Positions 1 to 55,413 of a DNA stretch of 55,413 nt are shown here, piece after piece. The notes under the pieces are model-generated. The model worked only from the letters and a program-made list of their open reading frames with translations, was not told the origin of the DNA and ran no database searches. This DNA is from a virus (Duplodnaviria; Caudoviricetes): the IMG/VR virus record IMGVR_UViG_3300034027_000007, positions 1-55,413 of that record; one strand, written 5' to 3'. The number at the start of each line of letters is the position of its first letter. Position 1 is the first letter of the stretch. Both the position numbers and the translations under genes were made by a program.

Positions 1-37
1 CACAAAAAAACACCCCCCCATATCGCAAGGAGGGCGC
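1..37 (+). repeat. Left terminal inverted repeat (candidate hairpin telomere half-site)
   Basis: CACAAAAAAACACCCCCCCATATCGCAAGGAGGGCGC matches the reverse complement of 55377-55413 except at positions 1 and 31. Confidence 0.9.
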
Positions 38-3653: not shown

Positions 3654-6600
3654 TTAGTAACCCTCTGGTAAAACCAACCCTCGATTATGCGTAGCAGCGC
3701 ACAAACCTCGATTATATTTCTCAAGCAATGGTGCATAAAAATTGATCCATTGGTTTGCCGTGTTGTTGTTGCACTTAGCGATCTTTGTGACGAGATTTTG
3801 CCCAATATACCACCGCTCTTTACCCGATTTTTTGGCATTAGCCTGCATAAAAGGCAGCATAGCCTCGCTGATTTTACGGAAGTTTGCCGGGGGCTTAGTC
3901 AAGCAACTATCAGGATCTGACAGCGGTCTTAAATCAACCTCACTCGATTTTTTGCTGACAATTTTTTGTACTTCTTGCTTAACCAATTCTGCGGGCGGTG
4001 CATTGTCTGGGGTGCGGTGATACAGTGGGATCTCGCGACTAGAAAGAGTAATTATTCTAGTCAGCCCTTTTAACATCTCGTGTTTGGGGGTTTTGTCCCA
4101 AACGTAAATATTTGTTGATGTTTTGTCTGTAGTCCATTCACCCGCATCATTTTTCCGGTAACAGAAGCGCGGCAAGTTCAGCATCATTGTGGGCGGGTTT
4201 TCTTGCAAGAACTTTAACCGATCTTGGCAAGCTTCAAACCAATCCAACCGCAGCACCATTACCAAACCTTTTAGGGCATGATCGAAAGCGTTTTTAATTA
4301 TAGGTGCGCTTAGTTTGCCATAAGGCGGGTTGCTAAAAATCCAGTCAGCTTTAGGCATTTTGTCCCAATTTTCGGCGACTGTAGCATCTAAGTGATTTTG
4401 CGCGGGTTTTTTAGGATCAATGTCGTTAGTCCAGACTTTAAACCCGGCCGCCTCCATTATGGAAGCGATCGCACGATTGCCGGAGCAAGGCTCGCCAATT
4501 GTGCCACTAAAAGGCACGTTAGCGAGTGCCAACAGCGTCATCCAGGCCGGAGTCTCATAAAAATCATACTTGTGCCTGCCGTTCTCATCTAACTCGATCT
4601 CGATAGCTTCTGGCGCTTCCTCTGTGGCTACTTCCTCAACAAGGGCGGCGGCGGGTGCTTCCTCAGCATCCGGCTCGACTTCCTCAAGGTCGATCTCGAT
4701 TGTCTCAACCTCGGCAGAGGCGGCGGGTGTTGCCTCTATCTCAACCTCAACAGGGGCGGCGGGTGTTGCCTCTATCTCAACCTCGGCAGGGGCGGCGGGT
4801 GTTGCCTCTATCTCAACCTCAACAGGGGCGGCGGCGGGTGTTACCTCAATCGGCTCGGTCACACCCTTGACGGTAGCGAGCAGATGTTCTGGCACTTCCC
4901 AGCCCCAAAGCTTCTGATATCCTCGGACTTTGACGGGTTCGATCGGTGTGACGTTTTCCAATAGCCAAGCATAGCGGCCAGCCTCCCAGATGCCGCAGCG
5001 CCGCTCTAAATCGGTTTGCTTGGCTATGTATTCCTCGGTCATCAGTACGCAGTCTACTAAATTGGCAACTGCGATTACATAACCGCGTTCTAAATCGCTG
5101 TGATGTCTGTCTACCAGCACGAGCAGATCGGGATTGATAGCCGTCTTTTTAACCGTTGACGCGATCGCAATCGGGCCCCGGTATTCACCGCCGCCAAACT
5201 TAGCCGGCCAGCCGCGAGTCTCAATTTTTTTGTTACCGTTGCGGACTAATTCGGCCCAGGGCTGATCGAGGCTCAAAGCTGGGATTTTAAGACTGACTTG
5301 TTGGACTGTTGCAGGAGCGGGTGCAATAACAGCGGGTGCAGCATTTACCACAACAGCGGGTGCAACAACGGCGGGTGCAGCATTTACCACAACAGCGGGT
5401 GCAACAACGGCGGGTGCAGCATTTACCACAACAGCAGGTGCAATAATTGCTTTGTCCTCTAAATCATCAATTTTCGCCCCTGGTTTTCTGACTACATAAT
5501 CGGCATAGTTTAACGTAGTCCTCAACGAGCTTAAATCGCCGTCAAAATGTCCTAAGATGCGCGATTTATATAACAGTTCGTTTGTGCCTTTTGGACAGTG
5601 TAAATCGGTCACGATAGCCGCCCAAGCGCCGCGCAAACTTTTACAGCTTGGGCTTTCTTCCCCTTGCCTAACAGGCAACCAAGAGAAATGTTTTGCCACC
5701 CCGATCCGGTTAACCTGTATCCGAATAGCATCTGAAAGTTTCTTGAGATCCGGATCGTCTGCGTCTATTTGTTGCGCTATTTTTTCCACTTCTGCGACCT
5801 TATCTCGAACTATCTTGCTATCTCTAATTAGATTAAGCCGTCTCAAGAAAAAATCAGAAGTTACACCCAGCAAGATAGTAGAGGTTGCCTGTATTTCTTT
5901 GTCGCGTTTTTTAACCCGCCCTTTAATTGTGAGCATTTTTGGCTCGCCTTCAATTGGGGTAAACTCTGCGGTGTAAATGATTTCAATTGGTCGGCATCCA
6001 GTCGCTGCGACAGCCCCTGCTATCATGCGGTAAACATCATCAGAAACTAAAGCAAACTTAATAGACTCTGTGAACTGTTCCGCGTGAAGGTCTAGCGCTT
6101 GGTTATCCAGTTTTGCAATTACCTTATCATCCGCGATTTTACGATCCTTGCTCCAATCGTAATCGAGGACGCCACAGTATTTAAAATGCAAGTGACGCAA
6201 TATTGTACTGCCGTCCGATTTCTGCCACATAACCGCATTTACACCCTCTACCAGCTTAGGCTTTAGCCTGTTAATTGCTGTGTTGTAGGCTGACAAACGT
6301 TGCATTTTTGTCTTGTCTGAGATCCTTTTAGGATCGAACCTGTCCATCGATAGAAGTTTATCGCACAATGCCTTAATGTCTTCCGGCGACTTAAGACTAA
6401 CCATCAATCGAGCGTACTCTCTCGCAGTCTTAAAGGTGTATTTATCATCTAGTTTGACTGTTTCCTCAGTTCGCTGCGGTAACAGCGCTTTAACGCGCTC
6501 TTGGCTCTGCATTTGGCGGACGATCGCGTATTGCTCAGGGGTGAAAATTTCTTTAATTTCAGCCCAAAAACCATCGCCAAAAGTTGTTTGATTGATTAAA

Positions 6601-7727
6601 GCCTGAATAAAGACTTTTTTAGACTTGTCTGAGCGCTGATCTTGCAGAACTTCCGCGAGCCGATAATCGCCTGATTTAGCTCGCCAGTACACCCGATCGC
6701 CGTTTTTGTACATGGGTGTTTTGATAGAGGTGTTAGGCGTCTCAATGGCAGTGCTAGCAGCCTCAGAAGCTTCGATCGGTTGCACCGCGTCCACATCGAG
6801 CGCAGATATCATATTAGGTTTGCTGGGGCTGTAGGCAAAAATCAACGTTTCGCCCGGTTTTTGGTCTTTATCGCACACCATAACCCGAACCGTACCGGGG
6901 CGGGGCGTCCAGTTAATCTTGTCACCAGCCTTGTAAAGTTTGATTGCTTCTGCGGGTGTTGCCACTACTTCAGCGGGTGCAGCGGCCGGCGCGGTTTCTG
7001 CGGGTGTTGCCACTACCTCAGCGGGTGCAGCGGTCGGCGCGGTTTCTGCGGGTGTTGCCACTACCTCAGCGGGTGCAGCGGCCGGCGCGGTTTCTGCGGG
7101 TGCTGCCACTACCTCAGCGGGTGCAGCGGCCGGCGCGGTTTCTGCGGGTGCAGCGACCAGCGGGGCTTGTTCGGGGGCGGTGACTGTTTCGGGTGCAGCG
7201 GCCGGTGTGGCTTCTGCGGGTGTAGCCGCCACGGCTTCAAAAGGAGCGCCGTACTTGTTGGTCGGATTGCCAAAGTGTTCCTGATACCAGCTATAGAGGG
7301 TTAACTCGCCTAAAGGGGCCCAAAAAGGTTTTTTCTTTTTCTCTGCAACCAGCAATTTTCTTGATGTTTCCGAATACTGATCTCGCTCGCAGTAGACAAT
7401 CAGAACATCGCCACCGCCGGCCGGAGTATAAACCAATTTGTCATTCTCCCGATACATCGGGGCTTTATAAACCTCTTTACCTTCTGCGAGATCGGGCTGT
7501 TTCGGCAATAGCTCTCTGTACTGGCTAGGGGTCATCAAGTCGCCAATATTTGCCCAAACCTTGCGGGTTCCGGTGCTGTCGGCGAGATTAACCCAAACTT
7601 TTTTAGACTTGCTGCTGGCTTGATCTTGGTCGCACTCAACCAAAATATAATTGCCGTCGCACTGATAGTATAAGTTGTCTCCCTTTTGGTGTAGCCGTTT
7701 GGTTCCTGTTTTGGTTGTGACTAACAT
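3654..7727 (-). CDS. Multidomain protelomerase (telomere resolvase) fused to SH3/KOW-like repeats, an ASCH domain and an amino-type DNA methyltransferase
   Basis: ATGCRPIEI, GRVKKR, SLRGAWA, ILGH, TTLNY (protelomerase pentad, ~5490-6450); ALSLDQPWA..GNKKIETRGW..YRGPIAIAS (ASCH, ~4890-5290); DFYETP, EPCSG, NDID, FSNPPY (MTase, ~4080-4570). Confidence 0.88.
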   Translation of the reverse strand: MLVTTKTGTKRLHQKGDNLYYQCDGNYILVECDQDQASSKSKKVWVNLADSTGTRKVWANIGDLMTPSQYRELLPKQPDLAEGKEVYKAPMYRENDKLVYTPAGGGDVLIVYCERDQYSETSRKLLVAEKKKKPFWAPLGELTLYSWYQEHFGNPTNKYGAPFEAVAATPAEATPAAAPETVTAPEQAPLVAAPAETAPAAAPAEVVAAPAETAPAAAPAEVVATPAETAPTAAPAEVVATPAETAPAAAPAEVVATPAEAIKLYKAGDKINWTPRPGTVRVMVCDKDQKPGETLIFAYSPSKPNMISALDVDAVQPIEASEAASTAIETPNTSIKTPMYKNGDRVYWRAKSGDYRLAEVLQDQRSDKSKKVFIQALINQTTFGDGFWAEIKEIFTPEQYAIVRQMQSQERVKALLPQRTEETVKLDDKYTFKTAREYARLMVSLKSPEDIKALCDKLLSMDRFDPKRISDKTKMQRLSAYNTAINRLKPKLVEGVNAVMWQKSDGSTILRHLHFKYCGVLDYDWSKDRKIADDKVIAKLDNQALDLHAEQFTESIKFALVSDDVYRMIAGAVAATGCRPIEIIYTAEFTPIEGEPKMLTIKGRVKKRDKEIQATSTILLGVTSDFFLRRLNLIRDSKIVRDKVAEVEKIAQQIDADDPDLKKLSDAIRIQVNRIGVAKHFSWLPVRQGEESPSCKSLRGAWAAIVTDLHCPKGTNELLYKSRILGHFDGDLSSLRTTLNYADYVVRKPGAKIDDLEDKAIIAPAVVVNAAPAVVAPAVVVNAAPAVVAPAVVVNAAPAVIAPAPATVQQVSLKIPALSLDQPWAELVRNGNKKIETRGWPAKFGGGEYRGPIAIASTVKKTAINPDLLVLVDRHHSDLERGYVIAVANLVDCVLMTEEYIAKQTDLERRCGIWEAGRYAWLLENVTPIEPVKVRGYQKLWGWEVPEHLLATVKGVTEPIEVTPAAAPVEVEIEATPAAPAEVEIEATPAAPVEVEIEATPAASAEVETIEIDLEEVEPDAEEAPAAALVEEVATEEAPEAIEIELDENGRHKYDFYETPAWMTLLALANVPFSGTIGEPCSGNRAIASIMEAAGFKVWTNDIDPKKPAQNHLDATVAENWDKMPKADWIFSNPPYGKLSAPIIKNAFDHALKGLVMVLRLDWFEACQDRLKFLQENPPTMMLNLPRFCYRKNDAGEWTTDKTSTNIYVWDKTPKHEMLKGLTRIITLSSREIPLYHRTPDNAPPAELVKQEVQKIVSKKSSEVDLRPLSDPDSCLTKPPANFRKISEAMLPFMQANAKKSGKERWYIGQNLVTKIAKCNNNTANQWINFYAPLLEKYNRGLCAATHNRGLVLPEGY
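4700..4850. repeat. 36-bp coding tandem repeat (EVEIEATPAAPx), linker between ASCH and MTase
   Basis: About 3.5 near-identical units visible in DNA and protein. Confidence 0.85.
5320..5445. repeat. 39-bp coding tandem repeat (APAVVVNAAPAVV) x3, linker between protelomerase and ASCH
   Basis: Visible in DNA and protein. Confidence 0.85.
6948..7155. repeat. 48-bp coding tandem repeat (PAETAPAAAPAEVVAT) x4
   Basis: Visible in DNA and protein. Confidence 0.9.
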
Positions 7728-7745: not shown

Positions 7746-7779
7746 ACCTTATCTTATTCTACAAGATAAGGTAAGATAA
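7746..7779. promoter_or_regulatory. Palindromic AAGATAAGG operator-like site upstream of the protelomerase gene
   Basis: ACCTTATCTT-attctac-AAGATAAGGT followed by another AAGATAA. Confidence 0.6.
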
Positions 7780-7814: not shown

Positions 7815-8339
7815 TTAGTGGTAGCCGCGATCGGCTTCCGTCTCAGGGTGGCTAGCTGCCTTTAAACGCTCCCACAACGGCAACAGCCTTTTATTTTTTG
7901 GTTGATATAAATGCTGTACAAATAAGGGATACTCCCTCGCATACATCTCGTATAGCTTGGGGTTGTTTGCCTTACTGGCTTCAGTGTTGGCTATCCTGTC
8001 GGCTAATTTTACAATTAGTCCAATCTCGCTAGACATTACCCTCGATAGCACTGTTTTGATTTGGGTGATTCTATCTTGGCTTTCGGGGCTGCTAATTACC
8101 CACACAGCATAAGCGATCTCAATACCAAAATTTGCCTCCAATTCTTCATAAGTTGTTTGGGTATCCTCTAAAGTATCGTGCAACCATGCCGCCGCTTGCG
8201 TTAACGGCTCGTTGAATCCTAAAGTCTGGAGTATCTCGGCAACCCGCTCTAAATGCACAGAGTAATTATATCTGCCGTATTTTTGACCTTGATGCTTTTG
8301 TAGTGCAAATTGTCTCGCACGGGCAACAATTTCATCCAT
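7815..8339 (-). CDS. HD-domain protein, RelA/SpoT hydrolase-like (small alarmone hydrolase/Mesh1-like)
   Basis: FALQKHQGQKY, YSVHLERV, AAWLHDTLEDT, VKLADRIAN; ATG at 8339 preferred over 8381. Confidence 0.85.
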   Translation of the reverse strand: MDEIVARARQFALQKHQGQKYGRYNYSVHLERVAEILQTLGFNEPLTQAAAWLHDTLEDTQTTYEELEANFGIEIAYAVWVISSPESQDRITQIKTVLSRVMSSEIGLIVKLADRIANTEASKANNPKLYEMYAREYPLFVQHLYQPKNKRLLPLWERLKAASHPETEADRGYH

Positions 8340-8390
8340 AAAAAAAACGCGGTTAACCACCACCGCGCAAGGACTAAACAACGCTAGAAA

Positions 8391-12503: not shown

Positions 12504-13508
12504 TTAAAAGGGGATTGGGTCTATATCGTTTAAATGATCGTTTAATCGTTTCTGGGGTGCTACAACTTGACCGTCTATCATGGGTTGCCATCTTTGCTCT
12601 GGAAACAAATTGAACTGTTTGCCCTCGTTATTCCTGATAATTCCGTTTGATGACACATAAGTAGTTGTGAGGGTGTAGCCGTCCTTAAGTTTAATTACTG
12701 TCGGCTCTTTCTTGAACGGCAAACCTGTATATTTTCGCCAGTCCTGCTTGGGTTTTATCCAAATAGGGAATCGGATAGACAAGCCACCGTCACCGATGAA
12801 AATGTGCAATTGCACAAGGTTTGCGCCTGTCCAGTGTACGCACGTCATTGTATCCACATTAATCATCCGCTCGCCCCAAAAATGATTAATGTTTGCCTTA
12901 ATTTCATCCCAATTAATCAAGCGAGAGTCACAGTACAAAACCCGACTTTTTATCACTGGATCTCTTAATTCCTTCCGCAACAAATAGAGCGCTCTGACCA
13001 CACTTACTAAATTTATCGAATAATCGATCACCGTTTCTCGCTTGCCGCGCTTCCACAAGTCCCGGACATTTCCCGGACATGACGGGGTAATCCCAAAGCC
13101 GAGATTGCTTTGTGCTAACTGTTCTAAATTATACCCACGTCGGCAGATTCCACTTAGAGGCTCGCCCGCCGCCCTCCGAACCTCAACCATCAAATCGTAG
13201 GTTGTGGTTAGGTTTATCCCGTAGGCGGCGCAAAGTTTGTCCCCAAACTCTAAGCCGTTAAAGCTGACAATCTCATCGGCCTCGCGGATCAGTGACTCAA
13301 CCCGCAAAAAACCGTCATCTTTCGTGAAGGCATAAAACTGCCGATCCTCTGGGAACCAGTCGGCATGAACCGCAAACACCGCTAAACCTAAATAACCATA
13401 GTCTGTCCAGTCCGCCTTATCTCTGATCCGGTTTTCCGGCGTGACGGCGTACACTAAGGTCTTTTTTGCGGGCTGCTTGCCAAACAACAGGGATTTAATA
13501 AAGCTCAT
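12504..13508 (-). CDS. DEDD/RNase H-like 3'-5' exonuclease homologue, catalytic residues degenerate, with C-terminal extension
   Basis: IVSFNGLEFG, TYDLM, GYNLEQLAQSNLG, LWKRG..VIDYSINLV match the fold motifs but lack the DxE, FD and YxxxD acids. Confidence 0.65.
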   Translation of the reverse strand: MSFIKSLLFGKQPAKKTLVYAVTPENRIRDKADWTDYGYLGLAVFAVHADWFPEDRQFYAFTKDDGFLRVESLIREADEIVSFNGLEFGDKLCAAYGINLTTTYDLMVEVRRAAGEPLSGICRRGYNLEQLAQSNLGFGITPSCPGNVRDLWKRGKRETVIDYSINLVSVVRALYLLRKELRDPVIKSRVLYCDSRLINWDEIKANINHFWGERMINVDTMTCVHWTGANLVQLHIFIGDGGLSIRFPIWIKPKQDWRKYTGLPFKKEPTVIKLKDGYTLTTTYVSSNGIIRNNEGKQFNLFPEQRWQPMIDGQVVAPQKRLNDHLNDIDPIPF

Positions 13509-13845: not shown

Positions 13846-16296
13846 CTACTTGCCGGAGGTTGCCGGAGTCTCGCCGGCCTTTGGTAAACGGAATGTTTTC
13901 CTACACTGGCGGTTGCCGCACTCATAGCGCGGCGTCCCGTCTTTGTAAGGCTTTAGGGGGTGTATTGTCGTGTACAAGCAATTCGGACAAGCCGCGAATT
14001 CATCCAAACCGCGATCGGCGTTTTCGCTTTCATTCTGGCGGTGCGGTGAGGTAACGCGGGCCCCTTCGGGAAACCGCAGCCCGTCCAGAGAAAAATCGCT
14101 GTAGGCAGGCTGCTGCACAAAGAAAGGCTCGAACGATGGCGCAACAACCAGGGCGATTCTATAAGCGTTTGGCGAGACTTTCTTAGAGTCGCCTATTTTT
14201 GGGCGAGCTGTAAGCCCTTCCTGCTCGTTTAAGAGGTCGCAGAGGCTGTTTAGTTGGTTTAGCTTATCCAGTAACTCAGCGCGGTTTGCAGCCGCTTTAT
14301 TGCTGTTTATATACGCTTTAGCTTGCTCTGAGGTCAGCACCATTGTGCAGTTGAGAAAGTCCTCTTTCATTAACCGGGTCGCGTTGCCCGTGTTTTTCTC
14401 GCCCTCTTCCGTCTTTTTCGTTCTTGCACCGCCGCTGAGGCCTGACACGTTCAACCCTTGCCCTGCCGATACAAACCCCATGTTTGTATGGTCAGACAAC
14501 TGATACATATCTTTGAAGAAGCGGCCGATCTCTTCGTAGTCCCGAGCGGTGGCATTATCTTCATCTAGGGCCATAACAAGATAATCTCTCTTGCTGGCTT
14601 CCTCTAAATTGTTCCTACGCCACTTAAACTCGCGGTGAAAGGCTTCTAACGCTTGCACGATGGTTTGTTCGGCGTTCATTCCCGGCTGTACAATGCCGGG
14701 GATTTTAAACCAGTCCTTAACCGATCCGGGGATAGGGTTAACGAGCCAAAGCACCCCTCTGTTTAGCTTGGCTAGCTCTACCGCGATCCGCTCTAGCAGC
14801 GGTGACTTACCGCCCGTGCTGCCTGCACAAACCCTCACTCGGTTGGTGAACTTAGTCCGCACCACTTCCCCAAACTGATCTGCCGGAAAACACCCCAATT
14901 CGATAAATTTATCGCGGTGTATGTCCGGCTCGTGTCTGGTTTGCGGCTCAAAGTCTAACCCTTTCTGTACTTTCGTTTTAGGCTTCTTGACCCGACTTAA
15001 ATCGGTTGTCAATAAGCCCCCAATAGTTGATAAATCGCTGTTGTCTCGTGTCCGGTTCATGTCCGCGTCATGTCCGGGACGTGTCTGGTTTACGGAAAAA
15101 ATCTCGACACTCACTAAAAAATCCTGCGGGTGCAACTTAAATTTTAATTCTCTGGTAGATAAACCCATTAACCCCCGCTGGTTTGTCACCTTGTTAAATT
15201 CTTCTGATGACAATTTAGTTTGGTCAGGGTTGCGATCGATCTTGAATTTAAGGCAATAGCCGCCTACTATTAAGTCAGTGCTGTGTGCATCAAATGTTAC
15301 ACCGTATTTATGGAAATGATCGATTATGGTATTGCCGATCTGATCTGGGTCAGTCAAACCCGAGAAACGGCGCGGCGCTTCATATTCGGCAATTTTCTGT
15401 TTTAAAATTGCGTTTTCTCCTGCTAGTTGGAGAAATTCAGAATCGCGGGCGCTCATCTCCTGTTTGTAAGCATTTTCTATTTGTGGCAGGGTGTTTTTTT
15501 CAATTGACTCCATTACATTTTGTTTGTCTCCTAAATCTTCCTGCAATATTGCAATAGCTTGTTTGAGCTTGGCAATCTCAGCGAGCTTGCTCTCAATAGC
15601 TTGACCTACTGCTTGCTGAGTGTAAGGGGCGATTTTGTTTCTAATTTCTAATTCCAACTTATAGTTAAAGTTAGTTTGTAGCTTGTCTAGCTCTAGGACT
15701 GTTTGTGCTAGCTCGCTGTCTAGATCGTCTTTTGCCGCTTCTAACTCTAGTACCTGTTCCTCTAAAGTCTTGTTGACTTCCTCCAATTCGGCAAGCTCGG
15801 CTAAGGTAGACTCTAAAGCCTGATTTTTTTCTGATAACTTTCTTTTTAGTGTCCCGATCAGTTCTTGCACTGGGGGCGAATCTAAAATTTTGGGGTTTTT
15901 TCCTGACTCCCAGTATCTAAGCCCTAATTCTAATTCCTCGCAGCGTCCCCTTAAATCGCTGACAGTCCGCTCTAATTCATCCCGATAGTGATTCCTCTCA
16001 GCGGTCATCTTCTCAAGCTCAGAGCGCAATTCTAGCTCTAAGATTGTTAATTTGCTCTTGGCATTCTCTAGCTCTAAAAGCAGTTCCTCTTGTTTCTCTT
16101 CCAACAGCCCTATAGCGTCCCGAGCGCCAAAGTTACAAGCGCTTGCACCCGCCAAAAATCCCGAAGTAAGGGCAAGACCGCTAGCAGCCAGCGGCGCTAA
16201 TCCCAAGCCGCCCAAAACAGCGACTACACCCAACCCGCCAAAGCTGACCGTGCCAAGCAGAGAAAACATTTTTGCTATCTCGTTTTTGGTACTCAT
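13846..16296 (-). CDS. Membrane-anchored coiled-coil FtsK/SpoIIIE/TraB-like ATPase with C-terminal zinc ribbon
   Basis: N-terminal hydrophobic segments, ~250-aa coiled coil, RVRVCAGSTGGKS (Walker A), LWLVNP, ALEAFHREFKWRR, YLVMALDED (Walker B), GFVSAGQ, CPNC..C-x4-C; start at 16296 or 16329. Confidence 0.7.
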   Translation of the reverse strand: MSTKNEIAKMFSLLGTVSFGGLGVVAVLGGLGLAPLAASGLALTSGFLAGASACNFGARDAIGLLEEKQEELLLELENAKSKLTILELELRSELEKMTAERNHYRDELERTVSDLRGRCEELELGLRYWESGKNPKILDSPPVQELIGTLKRKLSEKNQALESTLAELAELEEVNKTLEEQVLELEAAKDDLDSELAQTVLELDKLQTNFNYKLELEIRNKIAPYTQQAVGQAIESKLAEIAKLKQAIAILQEDLGDKQNVMESIEKNTLPQIENAYKQEMSARDSEFLQLAGENAILKQKIAEYEAPRRFSGLTDPDQIGNTIIDHFHKYGVTFDAHSTDLIVGGYCLKFKIDRNPDQTKLSSEEFNKVTNQRGLMGLSTRELKFKLHPQDFLVSVEIFSVNQTRPGHDADMNRTRDNSDLSTIGGLLTTDLSRVKKPKTKVQKGLDFEPQTRHEPDIHRDKFIELGCFPADQFGEVVRTKFTNRVRVCAGSTGGKSPLLERIAVELAKLNRGVLWLVNPIPGSVKDWFKIPGIVQPGMNAEQTIVQALEAFHREFKWRRNNLEEASKRDYLVMALDEDNATARDYEEIGRFFKDMYQLSDHTNMGFVSAGQGLNVSGLSGGARTKKTEEGEKNTGNATRLMKEDFLNCTMVLTSEQAKAYINSNKAAANRAELLDKLNQLNSLCDLLNEQEGLTARPKIGDSKKVSPNAYRIALVVAPSFEPFFVQQPAYSDFSLDGLRFPEGARVTSPHRQNESENADRGLDEFAACPNCLYTTIHPLKPYKDGTPRYECGNRQCRKTFRLPKAGETPATSGK
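15047..15090 (+). repeat. Four tandem 11-bp repeats (CRTGTCYGGGW family) inside the ATPase gene
   Basis: CGTGTCCGGTT CATGTCCGCGT CATGTCCGGGA CGTGTCTGGTT. Confidence 0.8.
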
Positions 16297-16315
16297 AAAA
16301 AATAACTCCTGTGTT

Positions 16316-16352
16316 TGTGTCTCGATCATGTCCGGGTCATGTCCGGGACATG
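16316..16352 (+). repeat. Tandem 11-bp repeats at the 5' end of the ATPase gene
   Basis: TGTGTCTCGAT CATGTCCGGGT CATGTCCGGGA CATG. Confidence 0.8.
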
Positions 16353-18837: not shown

Positions 18838-19143
18838 TTAATCGTTGTCGTCTTCTTCCTCTTCTTCCTCTTCTTCCTCTTCTTCCTCTTCTTCCTCTTC
18901 TTCTTCCTCCTGTTCCTCTTCCTCTTGGTCGCCGTCTTCGTAGTCATCCGGGTTGTAGGCGTCGCCGTCTTCGTCTTCCTCTTCGTCTTCCCCCACGTTA
19001 TCTTGATTATCTTCCTCGGCTTCCTCGGCTTCCTCGGTTGGCTCGGTTGGGTCAACTAATTCGCTGCCTTCCGTTGGCTCGCCTACACTAAACACCGCTG
19101 GGGGAATGGGGCCGGGTTGCCCGATATTGTTGATAAAGCTCAT
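18838..19143 (-). CDS. Extremely acidic small protein (101 aa, poly-Glu)
   Basis: CAGGAG RBS, GAA/GAG run; first gene of the operon. Confidence 0.65.
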   Translation of the reverse strand: MSFINNIGQPGPIPPAVFSVGEPTEGSELVDPTEPTEEAEEAEEDNQDNVGEDEEEDEDGDAYNPDDYEDGDQEEEEQEEEEEEEEEEEEEEEEEEEDDND

Positions 19144-19168: not shown

Positions 19169-19212
19169 TGTGTCTGGGAAATGTCCGGGTCATGTCCGGG
19201 TCATGTCCGAAT
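19169..19212 (+). repeat. Four tandem 11-bp repeats upstream of the 19143-13846 operon
   Basis: TGTGTCTGGGA AATGTCCGGGT CATGTCCGGGT CATGTCCGAAT. Confidence 0.85.
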
Positions 19213-55376: not shown

Positions 55377-55413
55377 GCGCCCCCCTTGCGATATGGGGGG
55401 GTGTTTTTTTGTA
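55377..55413 (-). repeat. Right terminal inverted repeat (candidate hairpin telomere half-site)
   Basis: GCGCCCCCCTTGCGATATGGGGGGGTGTTTTTTTGTA, reverse complement of 1-37 with 2 mismatches. Confidence 0.9.

Follow-up and report, generated by a model that had tools for sequence, protein, structure and literature searches.

A protelomerase gene carrying an ASCH and methyltransferase insert at one end of a putative cyanobacterial phage genome

Protelomerases, or telomere resolvases (Tel), have been studied as minimal self-contained enzymes, and one of them, TelN, is used to make closed linear "doggybone" DNA. A gene close to one end of the virus record IMGVR_UViG_3300034027_000007 raises the question of why an enzyme of this kind should share a single polypeptide with an ASCH domain and an amino-methyltransferase (MTase), partners which to our knowledge TelA, TelK and ResT do not have. 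The complete IMG/VR record of 55,413 bp was analysed and is referred to below as the window; the gene in question is an open reading frame (ORF) of 1357 aa, present at 3654-7727 on the minus strand as claimed in an earlier sequence-only reading of the same DNA. The answer that we consider probable is that the ORF is a working telomere resolvase which hosts an autonomous N6-adenine MTase cassette devoid of a target-recognition domain (TRD), with ASCH as an optional companion, and that the cassette most likely methylates the element's own DNA.

Domain order and integrity of the resolvase gene

The gene is preceded by a Shine-Dalgarno-like ribosome-binding sequence, AGGAAAA, 4 nt before the ATG, and its parts are given below in the order in which they are translated, with confidence in the AlphaFold2 (AF2) models expressed as the predicted local distance difference test score (pLDDT).

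3654-7727, minus strand: whole gene, protelomerase with inserted ASCH and MTase domains, 1357 aa, stop codon at 3654-3656
7503-7727, minus strand: N-terminal small beta-domain repeat 1 (aa 1-75), an internal repeat by phmmer, with an SH3/Tudor-like fold as a lead
7248-7478, minus strand: N-terminal repeat 2 (aa 84-160), of weak internal similarity (E 3e-3 to 4e-3)
6951-7235, minus strand: linker 1 (aa 165-259), rich in Ala/Pro/Thr/Glu/Val, with 48-nt tandem repeats
6768-6950, minus strand: N-terminal repeat 3 (aa 260-320), recognised from its position and motif, its similarity to the other repeats being marginal
6492-6725, minus strand: N-terminal repeat 4 (aa 335-412), consisting of a beta-barrel and then a long helix (AF2 pLDDT 79-96)
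6084-6455, minus strand: protelomerase N-terminal domain of core-binding type (aa 425-548), kept in all relatives
5448-6083, minus strand: protelomerase catalytic domain with the pentad (aa 549-760), from PF16684, invariant columns, the TelA alignment and Foldseek
5292-5438, minus strand: linker 2 (aa 764-812), rich in Ala/Val/Pro, with 39-nt tandem repeats (pLDDT <50)
4851-5288, minus strand: ASCH domain of the "GKER" octapeptide type (aa 814-959), from phrog_3193, fold and motif
4593-4850, minus strand: linker 3 (aa 960-1045), rich in Glu/Ala/Val/Pro, with 36-nt tandem repeats (pLDDT 33-41)
3963-4583, minus strand: gamma-type amino-MTase catalytic domain without TRD (aa 1049-1255), from phrog_799, AF2 and motifs
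3657-3944, minus strand: helical C-terminal domain of the Tel family, possibly helix-turn-helix (HTH)-like (aa 1262-1357), from jackhmmer and AF2

That this ORF encodes the working telomere resolvase of the phage is well supported by the sequence comparisons and structural models. The ResT/TelK catalytic domain family, PF16684, matches aa 549-744 with an E value of 8e-17 (61.8 bits against a cut-off of 27), and in a six-frame search of the whole record the resolvase ORF was the sole match to this family (66.6 bits). The catalytic pentad, which the sequence-only reading had described as intact while leaving the lysine unplaced, is complete, comprising R579 (5991-5993), K606 (5910-5912), R699 (5631-5633), H727 (5547-5549) and Y741 (5505-5507), and all five residues are invariant in a 27-sequence alignment; every residue and motif coordinate proposed in that reading proved correct at its codon. 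TelA is only distantly similar in sequence (phmmer E 0.17; NCBIfam TelA 17.5 bits, the cut-off being 800), and in the phmmer alignment to TelA (4dwp) R579 falls on the residue mutated in the R255A entry 4f41 and H727/Y741 on the TelA H...Y pair. We take the TelA active site to be R255/H394/Y405, the position of R255 having been confirmed through the same R255A entry. An AF2 model of aa 335-800 (mean pLDDT 86.8, 61-sequence alignment) has as its best Foldseek matches TelA (E 7e-10, TMt 0.65), TelK (E 2e-8) and the ResT catalytic domain (E 7e-5), with ordinary tyrosine recombinases ranking behind these three, and aligns with TelA over 353-360 columns in which both domains are covered. The two-domain fold of TelA/TelK type, the ASCH barrel and the class I MTase fold were all recovered when the protein was parsed by AF2.

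Profile searches of the three enzymatic and binding modules gave a divided answer, in that the Tel core lies above its Pfam cut-off and the ASCH and MTase domains do not, but both of the latter are matched by PHROGs. For ASCH, the Pfam family PF04266 falls below its cut-off at aa 818-896 (E 0.0045, 18.1 against 21.2 bits), whereas phrog_3193 matches aa 810-949 with an E value of 5.6e-30; the ASCH domain of one relative, P0003, passes the Pfam cut-off with 28.6 bits. The octapeptide GNKKIETR stands at aa 831-838 (5214-5237), its pattern GxKxxExR being kept in six of the six ASCH-bearing Tels, and the modelled domain resembles the ASCH domain of TRIP4 (Foldseek E 3e-9, TMt 0.65; VIA Z 11.8-11.9). 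The ASCH domain with a GxKxxETR motif that had been read from the letters is thus borne out by profile, fold and octapeptide despite the sub-threshold Pfam score.

The MTase domain has no Pfam family match and is matched by phrog_799, "DNA methyltransferase", over aa 1049-1229 (E 6.9e-27). Its motifs run in the order DFYETPxW (motif X-like), IGEPCSG (motif I), NDID and SNPPY (motif IV, with NPPY at aa 1133-1136, 4320-4331), an arrangement that we take to be that of the gamma class of amino-MTases. Across 50 MTase homologues F/Y/E/P/W, G, D, D and N are invariant and NPP[YF] and FY.TP conserved. An AF2 model of aa 805-1357 (pLDDT 81.1, 50 sequences) places an 86-residue disordered linker between ASCH and MTase, and models the MTase domain itself as a confident class I methyltransferase (pLDDT >90), the structural neighbours of which by VIA include M.TaqI (Z 14.8), chains of HsdM type (Z 13.3-14.4), CamA and M.BseCI. 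The NPPY amino-MTase of the sequence-only reading is accordingly upheld by phrog_799, class I fold and motif order. It appears to be without a TRD of its own, because it comprises only about 207 aa and its 159 aligned residues cover TaqI 21-228 of 382, that is, the catalytic half alone; the segment that follows is the C-terminal domain of the Tel family. Among the neighbour genes tested, no HsdS-like gene was seen.

The N-terminus of the resolvase bears four copies of a small beta-domain, the fold of which was modelled for repeat 4. Repeats 1 and 4 recognise each other by phmmer (E 5e-8 to 7e-8). Foldseek relates the model of repeat 4 weakly to Tudor/PWWP domains (E 0.04-0.07, TMt 0.53-0.72), the Pfam Tudor-knot match is also weak (E 0.098), and a search of the ESM Atlas with the repeats returned nothing above 0.78.

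As had been noted from the sequence, the domains are separated by in-frame tandem-repeat linkers. Tandem Repeats Finder delimits three arrays, at 6948-7150 (48 nt x4.2), 5316-5443 (39 nt x3.3) and 4703-4834 (36 nt x3.7), the units of which are mutually unrelated, are all multiples of 3 and are located in the A/P/V/E-rich linkers. A protein that is 97% identical to that of the window (P0002, on a contig of 55,584 nt) differs from it solely by two in-frame deletions and by no substitution, having lost one 13-aa unit in linker 2 and two 12-aa units (24 aa) in linker 3. The copy number of the repeats is uncertain or polymorphic, and the reading frame is unaffected.

Such arrays invite the suspicion that the ORF has been mis-assembled across repeats from separate genes, or that the repeats at the ends of the record are no more than assembly break points. 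It is true that the short-read contigs of four metagenome runs break at the three arrays, and that the exact copy number is left uncertain by the difference between the window and P0002. However, the three arrays have unrelated units, contigs of one run (X1) cover 5480-6969, which is spanned by a single contig, and other parts of the gene without differences, and three collinear genomes of 52-60 kb all terminate in inverted repeats. In addition, 13 divergent proteins share one domain order (Tel N-domain, Tel catalytic domain, ASCH where present, MTase, C-terminal domain) with that of the window, and related genomes contain fused ORFs of 949-956 aa (G002) and 1236 aa (G001). We conclude that the ORF is not a chimera, because divergent relatives with different or nearly absent linkers keep this order, and we regard an artefact as very improbable indeed.

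Origin and distribution of the insert

The sequence-only reading had described the protein as a fusion, and on this point it has to be corrected, as the domains are not simply joined end to end. The C-terminal domain (aa 1262-1357, about 90-96 aa) is conserved among the fused Tels and was found by jackhmmer at the C-terminus of 97 of 130 proteins, most of which are stand-alone Tel relatives of 500-650 aa in which a spacer of coiled-coil-like or low-complexity sequence joins the catalytic domain to the C-terminal one. Since the stand-alone Tels share this domain, ASCH and MTase constitute an insertion in a natural linker, placed ahead of a conserved C-terminal Tel domain. AF2 models the domain as four helices with a pLDDT of about 90 or above; it has no Pfam match, and the ESM Atlas offers HTH_11 clusters at 0.81 as a weak lead and an unnamed cyanobacterial cluster at 0.90, which may be the domain's own family. 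The idea that the spacer of the stand-alone Tels is a degenerate MTase was rejected, as a jackhmmer search from the MTase recovered just 15 proteins, all bearing an MTase.

A HMMER search with the Tel region among 1.84 billion cluster representatives found 125 proteins at E <= 1e-3. Domain mapping placed an MTase in 10 of these and ASCH in 4 of those 10, leaving 115 with neither partner; word-indexed searches added P0002, P0003 and P0007. ASCH, where present, lies directly upstream of the MTase, as seen in 6 proteins. The fused proteins form singleton or two-member clusters which are almost all metagenomic, one of them being named "Telomere resolvase" at its source, and the contigs of further examples reach 58.7 and 60.1 kb. 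It had been foreseen that this architecture might prove to be already common; it does recur, in at least 13 sequence clusters of one clade, yet it is rare, as the 10 of 125 representatives show. In the library searched, no paper joining a protelomerase with an MTase or ASCH was found, although the supplements of 10.1101/2024.11.13.623437 and PMC5512222 may bear on novelty. A protelomerase clade with an inserted ASCH/MTase module is, then, recurrent but rare, and was not found in print.

The history of the insert was examined in two trees. In a maximum likelihood Tel tree of 54 rows, which omits P0002 as near-identical, P0004 as having no Tel, every hit past P0060 and any row with under 250 aa of Tel, all 13 MTase-bearing Tels fall into one clade (UFboot 100, SH-aLRT 99), and the MTase trait requires one change in 100% of 200 bootstrap trees. 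The MTase-bearing Tels thus appear to have had a single origin. ASCH requires three changes on the same tree, at least two of which are forced, and on this evidence is gained or lost at least twice within the clade. An MTase tree of 51 rows, built by a quick method, intersperses the fused forms with the stand-alone ones (4 changes, of which at least 3 are forced) and places a group of stand-alone cyanobacterial proteins of 224-247 aa as sister to the MTase domain of the window. The same MTase family is also found as autonomous genes of about 200-250 aa, and in 90 fetched loci the MTase has neither Tel nor ASCH nearby; some of the short "stand-alone" entries may be genes truncated on short contigs, and for others the contigs measure 22-195 kb.

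Two observations on the surroundings of stand-alone members are recorded here. In an unrelated 100-kb phage contig (G003) an ASCH-like sequence, L100 (51497-51894), is separated by about 0.8 kb from an MTase of this family that stands alone; the ASCH-like sequence is split over two frames, with one TGA and one TAA, and may be a decaying gene or reflect a sequencing error. An apparent ASCH beside the stand-alone MTase of a further contig (G004) was not counted, the match being just 38 aa long (E 7e-4).

The autonomous cassette is favoured because the fused and free MTases interleave, free homologues without TRD are widespread, the linkers are disordered and ASCH has been both gained and lost. 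The sequence-only reading had offered as possibilities a coupling of resolution to methylation or to the sensing of modified nucleotides, or an essential enzyme carrying anti-defence domains, and the interleaved MTase tree favours the idea of a carrier or cassette over that of obligatory coupling. The events could be envisaged as follows. A myovirus-type temperate element of a filamentous cyanobacterium would be a linear molecule of about 55 kb, the ends of which are inverted copies of one sequence. To judge from TelN, TelK, TelA and the cyanobacterial TelT, breakage and rejoining of the replicated palindromic junction by the resolvase would leave each end sealed as a covalently closed hairpin. 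In one ancestor of the Tel clade a cassette would have been inserted in the flexible linker between the catalytic and C-terminal helical domains, this cassette being a small gamma-type N6-adenine MTase catalytic domain without TRD, to which ASCH was joined in some lineages, so that the modules came to be strung like beads on disordered Ala/Pro/Val/Glu repeat linkers. Adenine in DNA would be the presumed substrate. Each time this indispensable enzyme was produced, the insert would most likely methylate the element's own DNA, either in a protective role against restriction, as we infer, or to mark it epigenetically as self, with ASCH as an accessory binder of nucleic acid or modified bases.

An MTase without TRD that is covalently tethered to a sequence-specific enzyme might instead be mechanistically coupled to it. 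The DNA-binding domains of the resolvase would aim the MTase at adenines at or near the telomere site and ASCH would read the mark, as a consequence of which the enzyme could distinguish a replicated, hemimethylated junction from a hairpin that has already been resolved, or could protect the palindrome against nucleases of the host. The alignment to TaqI 21-228 of 382 is in keeping with this, as is the fact that the fusion has been kept since its single origin, and in P0012 the linkers are nearly absent, so that the MTase begins 6 residues past the Tel catalytic domain. ASCH is moreover predicted to bind modified bases and to accompany N6A-MTases (PMC4738411). However, the stand-alone homologues of 200-250 aa also have no TRD and no Tel nearby, so that tethering would be unnecessary for function; ASCH has come or gone at least twice in the clade, and the long disordered linkers argue for loosely independent modules. 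We therefore consider such coupling unlikely. The resolvase might be used more specifically as a targeting device, a built-in "DamID", with N6-methyladenine (m6A) written around the telomere and read by ASCH, so that the methylation state, full in the hairpin and half in the replicated junction, would license or time resolution or hide the palindrome from nucleases of the host; this is distinctly unlikely, and if true it would constitute an epigenetic checkpoint for bacterial telomeres.

The insert could also be directed at RNA. ASCH would in that case bind RNA or remove N4-acetylcytidine (ac4C), and the NPPY domain would make m6A or N2-methylguanosine (m2G), the whole acting on host translation or as an RNA-modifying effector. 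The RNA m6A/m2G enzymes METTL5 (Z 15.0), PH1948 (Z 15.1), TrmM and Trm11 are among the structural neighbours of the MTase and are equally close to its fold, and several ASCH proteins with the GKER octapeptide are reported to have lowered ac4C in tRNA (bioRxiv 10.64898/2026.02.27.708502). Against this, the motif X-like FYETP, the arrangement of motifs I and IV and the PHROG name indicate DNA N6A enzymes, and the ASCH domain of TRIP4 has been crystallised with double-stranded DNA according to PDB titles. Furthermore, P0004, a multidomain protein with no Tel, fuses an MTase of the same family to RNase HII and, on the other side of the MTase, to a ParB-like, DNA-acting domain (as given in the database's precomputed Pfam listing). 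An RNA-directed role is on balance improbable to a marked degree. Both P0003 (aa 671-815) and P0004 (aa 170-330) bear an extra module with LLPTP...MGFP..W motifs which matches phrog_1008, "DNA methyltransferase" (E 6e-9); it resembles the C-terminal part of a cytosine-5 MTase without the catalytic half, and in P0003 it lies between ASCH and the N6A-type MTase.

The sequence-only reading had called the protein polyvalent, a term used by Iyer et al. (2017, PMC5512222) for proteins of phages and conjugative elements that unite disparate biochemical activities, and in which the N6A methylase is a hub domain. As regards disparate activities in one phage polypeptide the term fits; a domain for the virion or for injection, or a processing peptidase, was not detected. 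If it applied in full, the protein would be packaged in the virion, enter with the DNA and be cleaved to Tel, ASCH and MTase for the first minutes of infection, and a telomere phage would benefit from having its resolvase at hand so soon. The union of unrelated activities, the hub status of the methylase, the additional stretch in P0003 matching phrog_1008 and the typical multi-enzyme make-up of P0004, with the same MTase, would all agree with this. On the other hand, neither a virion/MuF domain nor a processing (zincin) peptidase was detected in the protein by Pfam and PHROGs, though it may be packaged all the same; the gene lies in a non-structural, leftward string of genes adjoining the telomere and away from the head genes. 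A paucity of polyvalent proteins in cyanobacteria is noted in PMC5512222, the main text of which names no resolvase, telomere or ASCH, although its supplement could list such architectures. We give little credence to an injected effector, and retain the autonomous cassette hosted by a working resolvase as the preferred reading.

Genome ends and nature of the phage

The hosting resolvase of this reading would act at the ends of the genome, where the window has the following features.

2-37, plus strand: left terminal inverted repeat, presumed to be half of the resolution site
55377-55412, minus strand: right terminal inverted repeat, equal to the inverted left copy at 35 of 36 positions

There is no third copy of the 36-nt repeat in the record, the first 29 nt being unique to the termini, and a search of other viral contigs for the telomere repeat gave no match. 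Tel-MTase genes are also carried by two relatives, G001 (60,105 bp) and G002 (52,500 bp), which share with the window a Rep protein of 46-55% identity and a tail sheath of 57% identity; the gene order of G002 is collinear with that of the window, its resolvase gene adjoining the left end. Both are classed by IMG/VR as having inverted terminal repeats, and their inverted ends were measured as identical over about 120 nt or more (G001) and about 100 nt (G002). Three collinear genomes of 52-60 kb ending in inverted repeats are in keeping with linear replicons, with both telomeres derived from one palindromic site, and by analogy with known resolvases the ends of the window may be closed as hairpins.

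Several observations weigh against the reading given above. IMG/VR labels the window "linear, no end repeats" and CheckV estimates its completeness at 77%. The Logan contigs, at a depth of about 0.5-6, contain no fold-back, joint or junction form and neither show nor exclude hairpins, and the bins of runs X2-X4 without cover carry no meaning. A low-depth contig of run X1 that contains the terminal repeat extends outward beyond position 2 by some 255 nt or more, and this additional sequence, which the window lacks, is not the fold-back expected of read-through at a hairpin; the contig could represent a second replicon sharing the telomere sequence, a chimera, or a true end further out. With regard to the insert, the fold lies equally near to RNA methyltransferases, so that DNA is a presumed substrate only. 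Were the MTase to work alone, it would moreover be hard to account for a fusion that persists in Tels which have diverged to about 31-50% identity, and this long retention hints at some benefit of physical linkage. Completeness by CheckV is 72-79% for G001 and G002; because all three collinear records end in inverted repeats, these values probably understate the completeness of this phage group.

The window is the genome of a tailed phage: among its products, tail sheath, tape measure, baseplate, baseplate J, major head, portal-like, terminase and large replication proteins were recognised through PHROG and Pfam. Directly upstream of the resolvase gene and on the same strand, 7815-8381 (minus strand) encodes an HD-type metal-dependent phosphohydrolase (phrog_990, E 2e-36). 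Most of the neighbour genes, including most of the leftward string, have no Pfam or PHROGs match, and neither a PF00589 integrase nor a protein-primed DNA polymerase (PF03175) was detected in the record. The sequence GCGATCGC occurs 17 times in the window against an expected 0.8, an excess which is presumably the HIP1 signature of cyanobacteria. This excess, the named stand-alone MTase homologues closest to the domain, which are from Microcoleus and Nostoc, and the origin of the metagenome runs containing window sequence, which are biocrust and soil, together point to a cyanobacterial host.

No relatives of the window were found in two scans of species-representative genomes or in a first-pass single-protein scan of viral contigs, and tblastn against GenBank phages recovered separate ASCH or MTase genes only, at <60% identity, with no Tel fusion. 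With G001 and G002, the window forms a group of myovirus-type telomere phages of cyanobacteria which are associated with biocrust and end in inverted repeats.

Repeated motifs were also observed in the window. The 10-mer ACC(T/C)TATCTT, which is mostly intergenic, has 24 copies (<=1 mismatch) against 3.6 expected, including those at 7746-7772, 1534, 2274, 3640, 11117, 23281, 26170/26186, 37916, 38348, 42537, 52909 and 53674. A perfect 12-bp inverted pair of this motif stands 19 nt upstream of the resolvase ATG and another copy just past the stop codon, and it is probably a phage-specific operator, promoter or terminator element. A repeat of 25-28 nt with TCCCGGACAT(G/T) units is found in both orientations at 13055-13087, 15057-15088, 16326-16352 and 19171-19195, around and within an 827-aa ORF at 13846-16329, and may represent iterons or operator sites of a replication/maintenance region. 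At 18860-18898 a run rich in TCT/TCC triplets (TCTTCTTCC repeated) lies within a small minus-strand ORF, in which it would encode a Glu-rich acidic stretch.

Comparison with known telomere resolvases and ASCH-methyltransferase pairs

The resolvase of the window shares with TelA (Agrobacterium), TelK (phiKO2), TelN (N15) and ResT (Borrelia) the two-domain, tyrosine-recombinase-like core and the R-K-R-H-Y residues. The gene described here lies close to an end of its linear phage genome, which has inverted terminal repeats, and telN is placed in the same way in the N15 prophage. It differs from TelK in having four small N-terminal beta-domains instead of the muzzle, and from the characterised resolvases in its C-terminal helical domain and in the 450-aa insert of ASCH and MTase that precedes this domain. 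With phages of the N15 type the window has in common a terminase, a large replication protein, a protelomerase and a linear form bounded by inverted repeats. No integrase was detected, and neither a cos site nor an internal copy of telRL was identified in the window. The differences lie in the host phylum, the contractile tail and the resolvase, which through its extra domains is more than twice the size.

Closer in host are the telomeric transposons of Leptolyngbya ohadii, the TelT of which resolves a palindromic substrate and needs 28-bp half sites (10.1101/2024.11.13.623437). In the same work the hairpin telomeres of cyanobacterial replicons were deduced from inverted repeats at contig ends, and cyanobacterial protelomerases are said to "have different domain architectures"; the main text mentions no methyltransferase or ASCH, although the supplement could list such architectures. 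Cyanobacterial hosts and inverted-repeat ends are thus common to both systems, but the elements described there are chromosomes, plasmids and transposons, whereas the window is a tailed phage.

The pairing of ASCH with an MTase has itself been described, ASCH having been joined to N6A-MTases, by fusion or within an operon, "on multiple occasions in bacteria", with Dam-type fusions among the cyanobacterial cases (Iyer, Zhang and Aravind 2016, PMC4738411). The pairing is shared by the window, but its MTase is of the gamma type (TaqI/HsdM-like) and without TRD rather than Dam, and the pair is embedded in a resolvase. Like the polyvalent proteins discussed above, it is a large phage protein uniting unrelated activities; unlike them, the carrier is an essential enzyme of the replication cycle, with no virion-association or peptidase domain detected.

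These comparisons raise the questions of whether resolution and methylation are linked, of what a gamma MTase without TRD targets when alone and when tethered, and of what is read by a phage ASCH domain. As regards the resolvases themselves, the clade shows that whole enzymes are tolerated as insertions in the linker ahead of the C-terminal domain, and that one such insertion has been kept over a long evolutionary time, and the N15 lifestyle would be extended to another phylum, beside the cyanobacterial replicons with hairpin telomeres that were reported in 2024.

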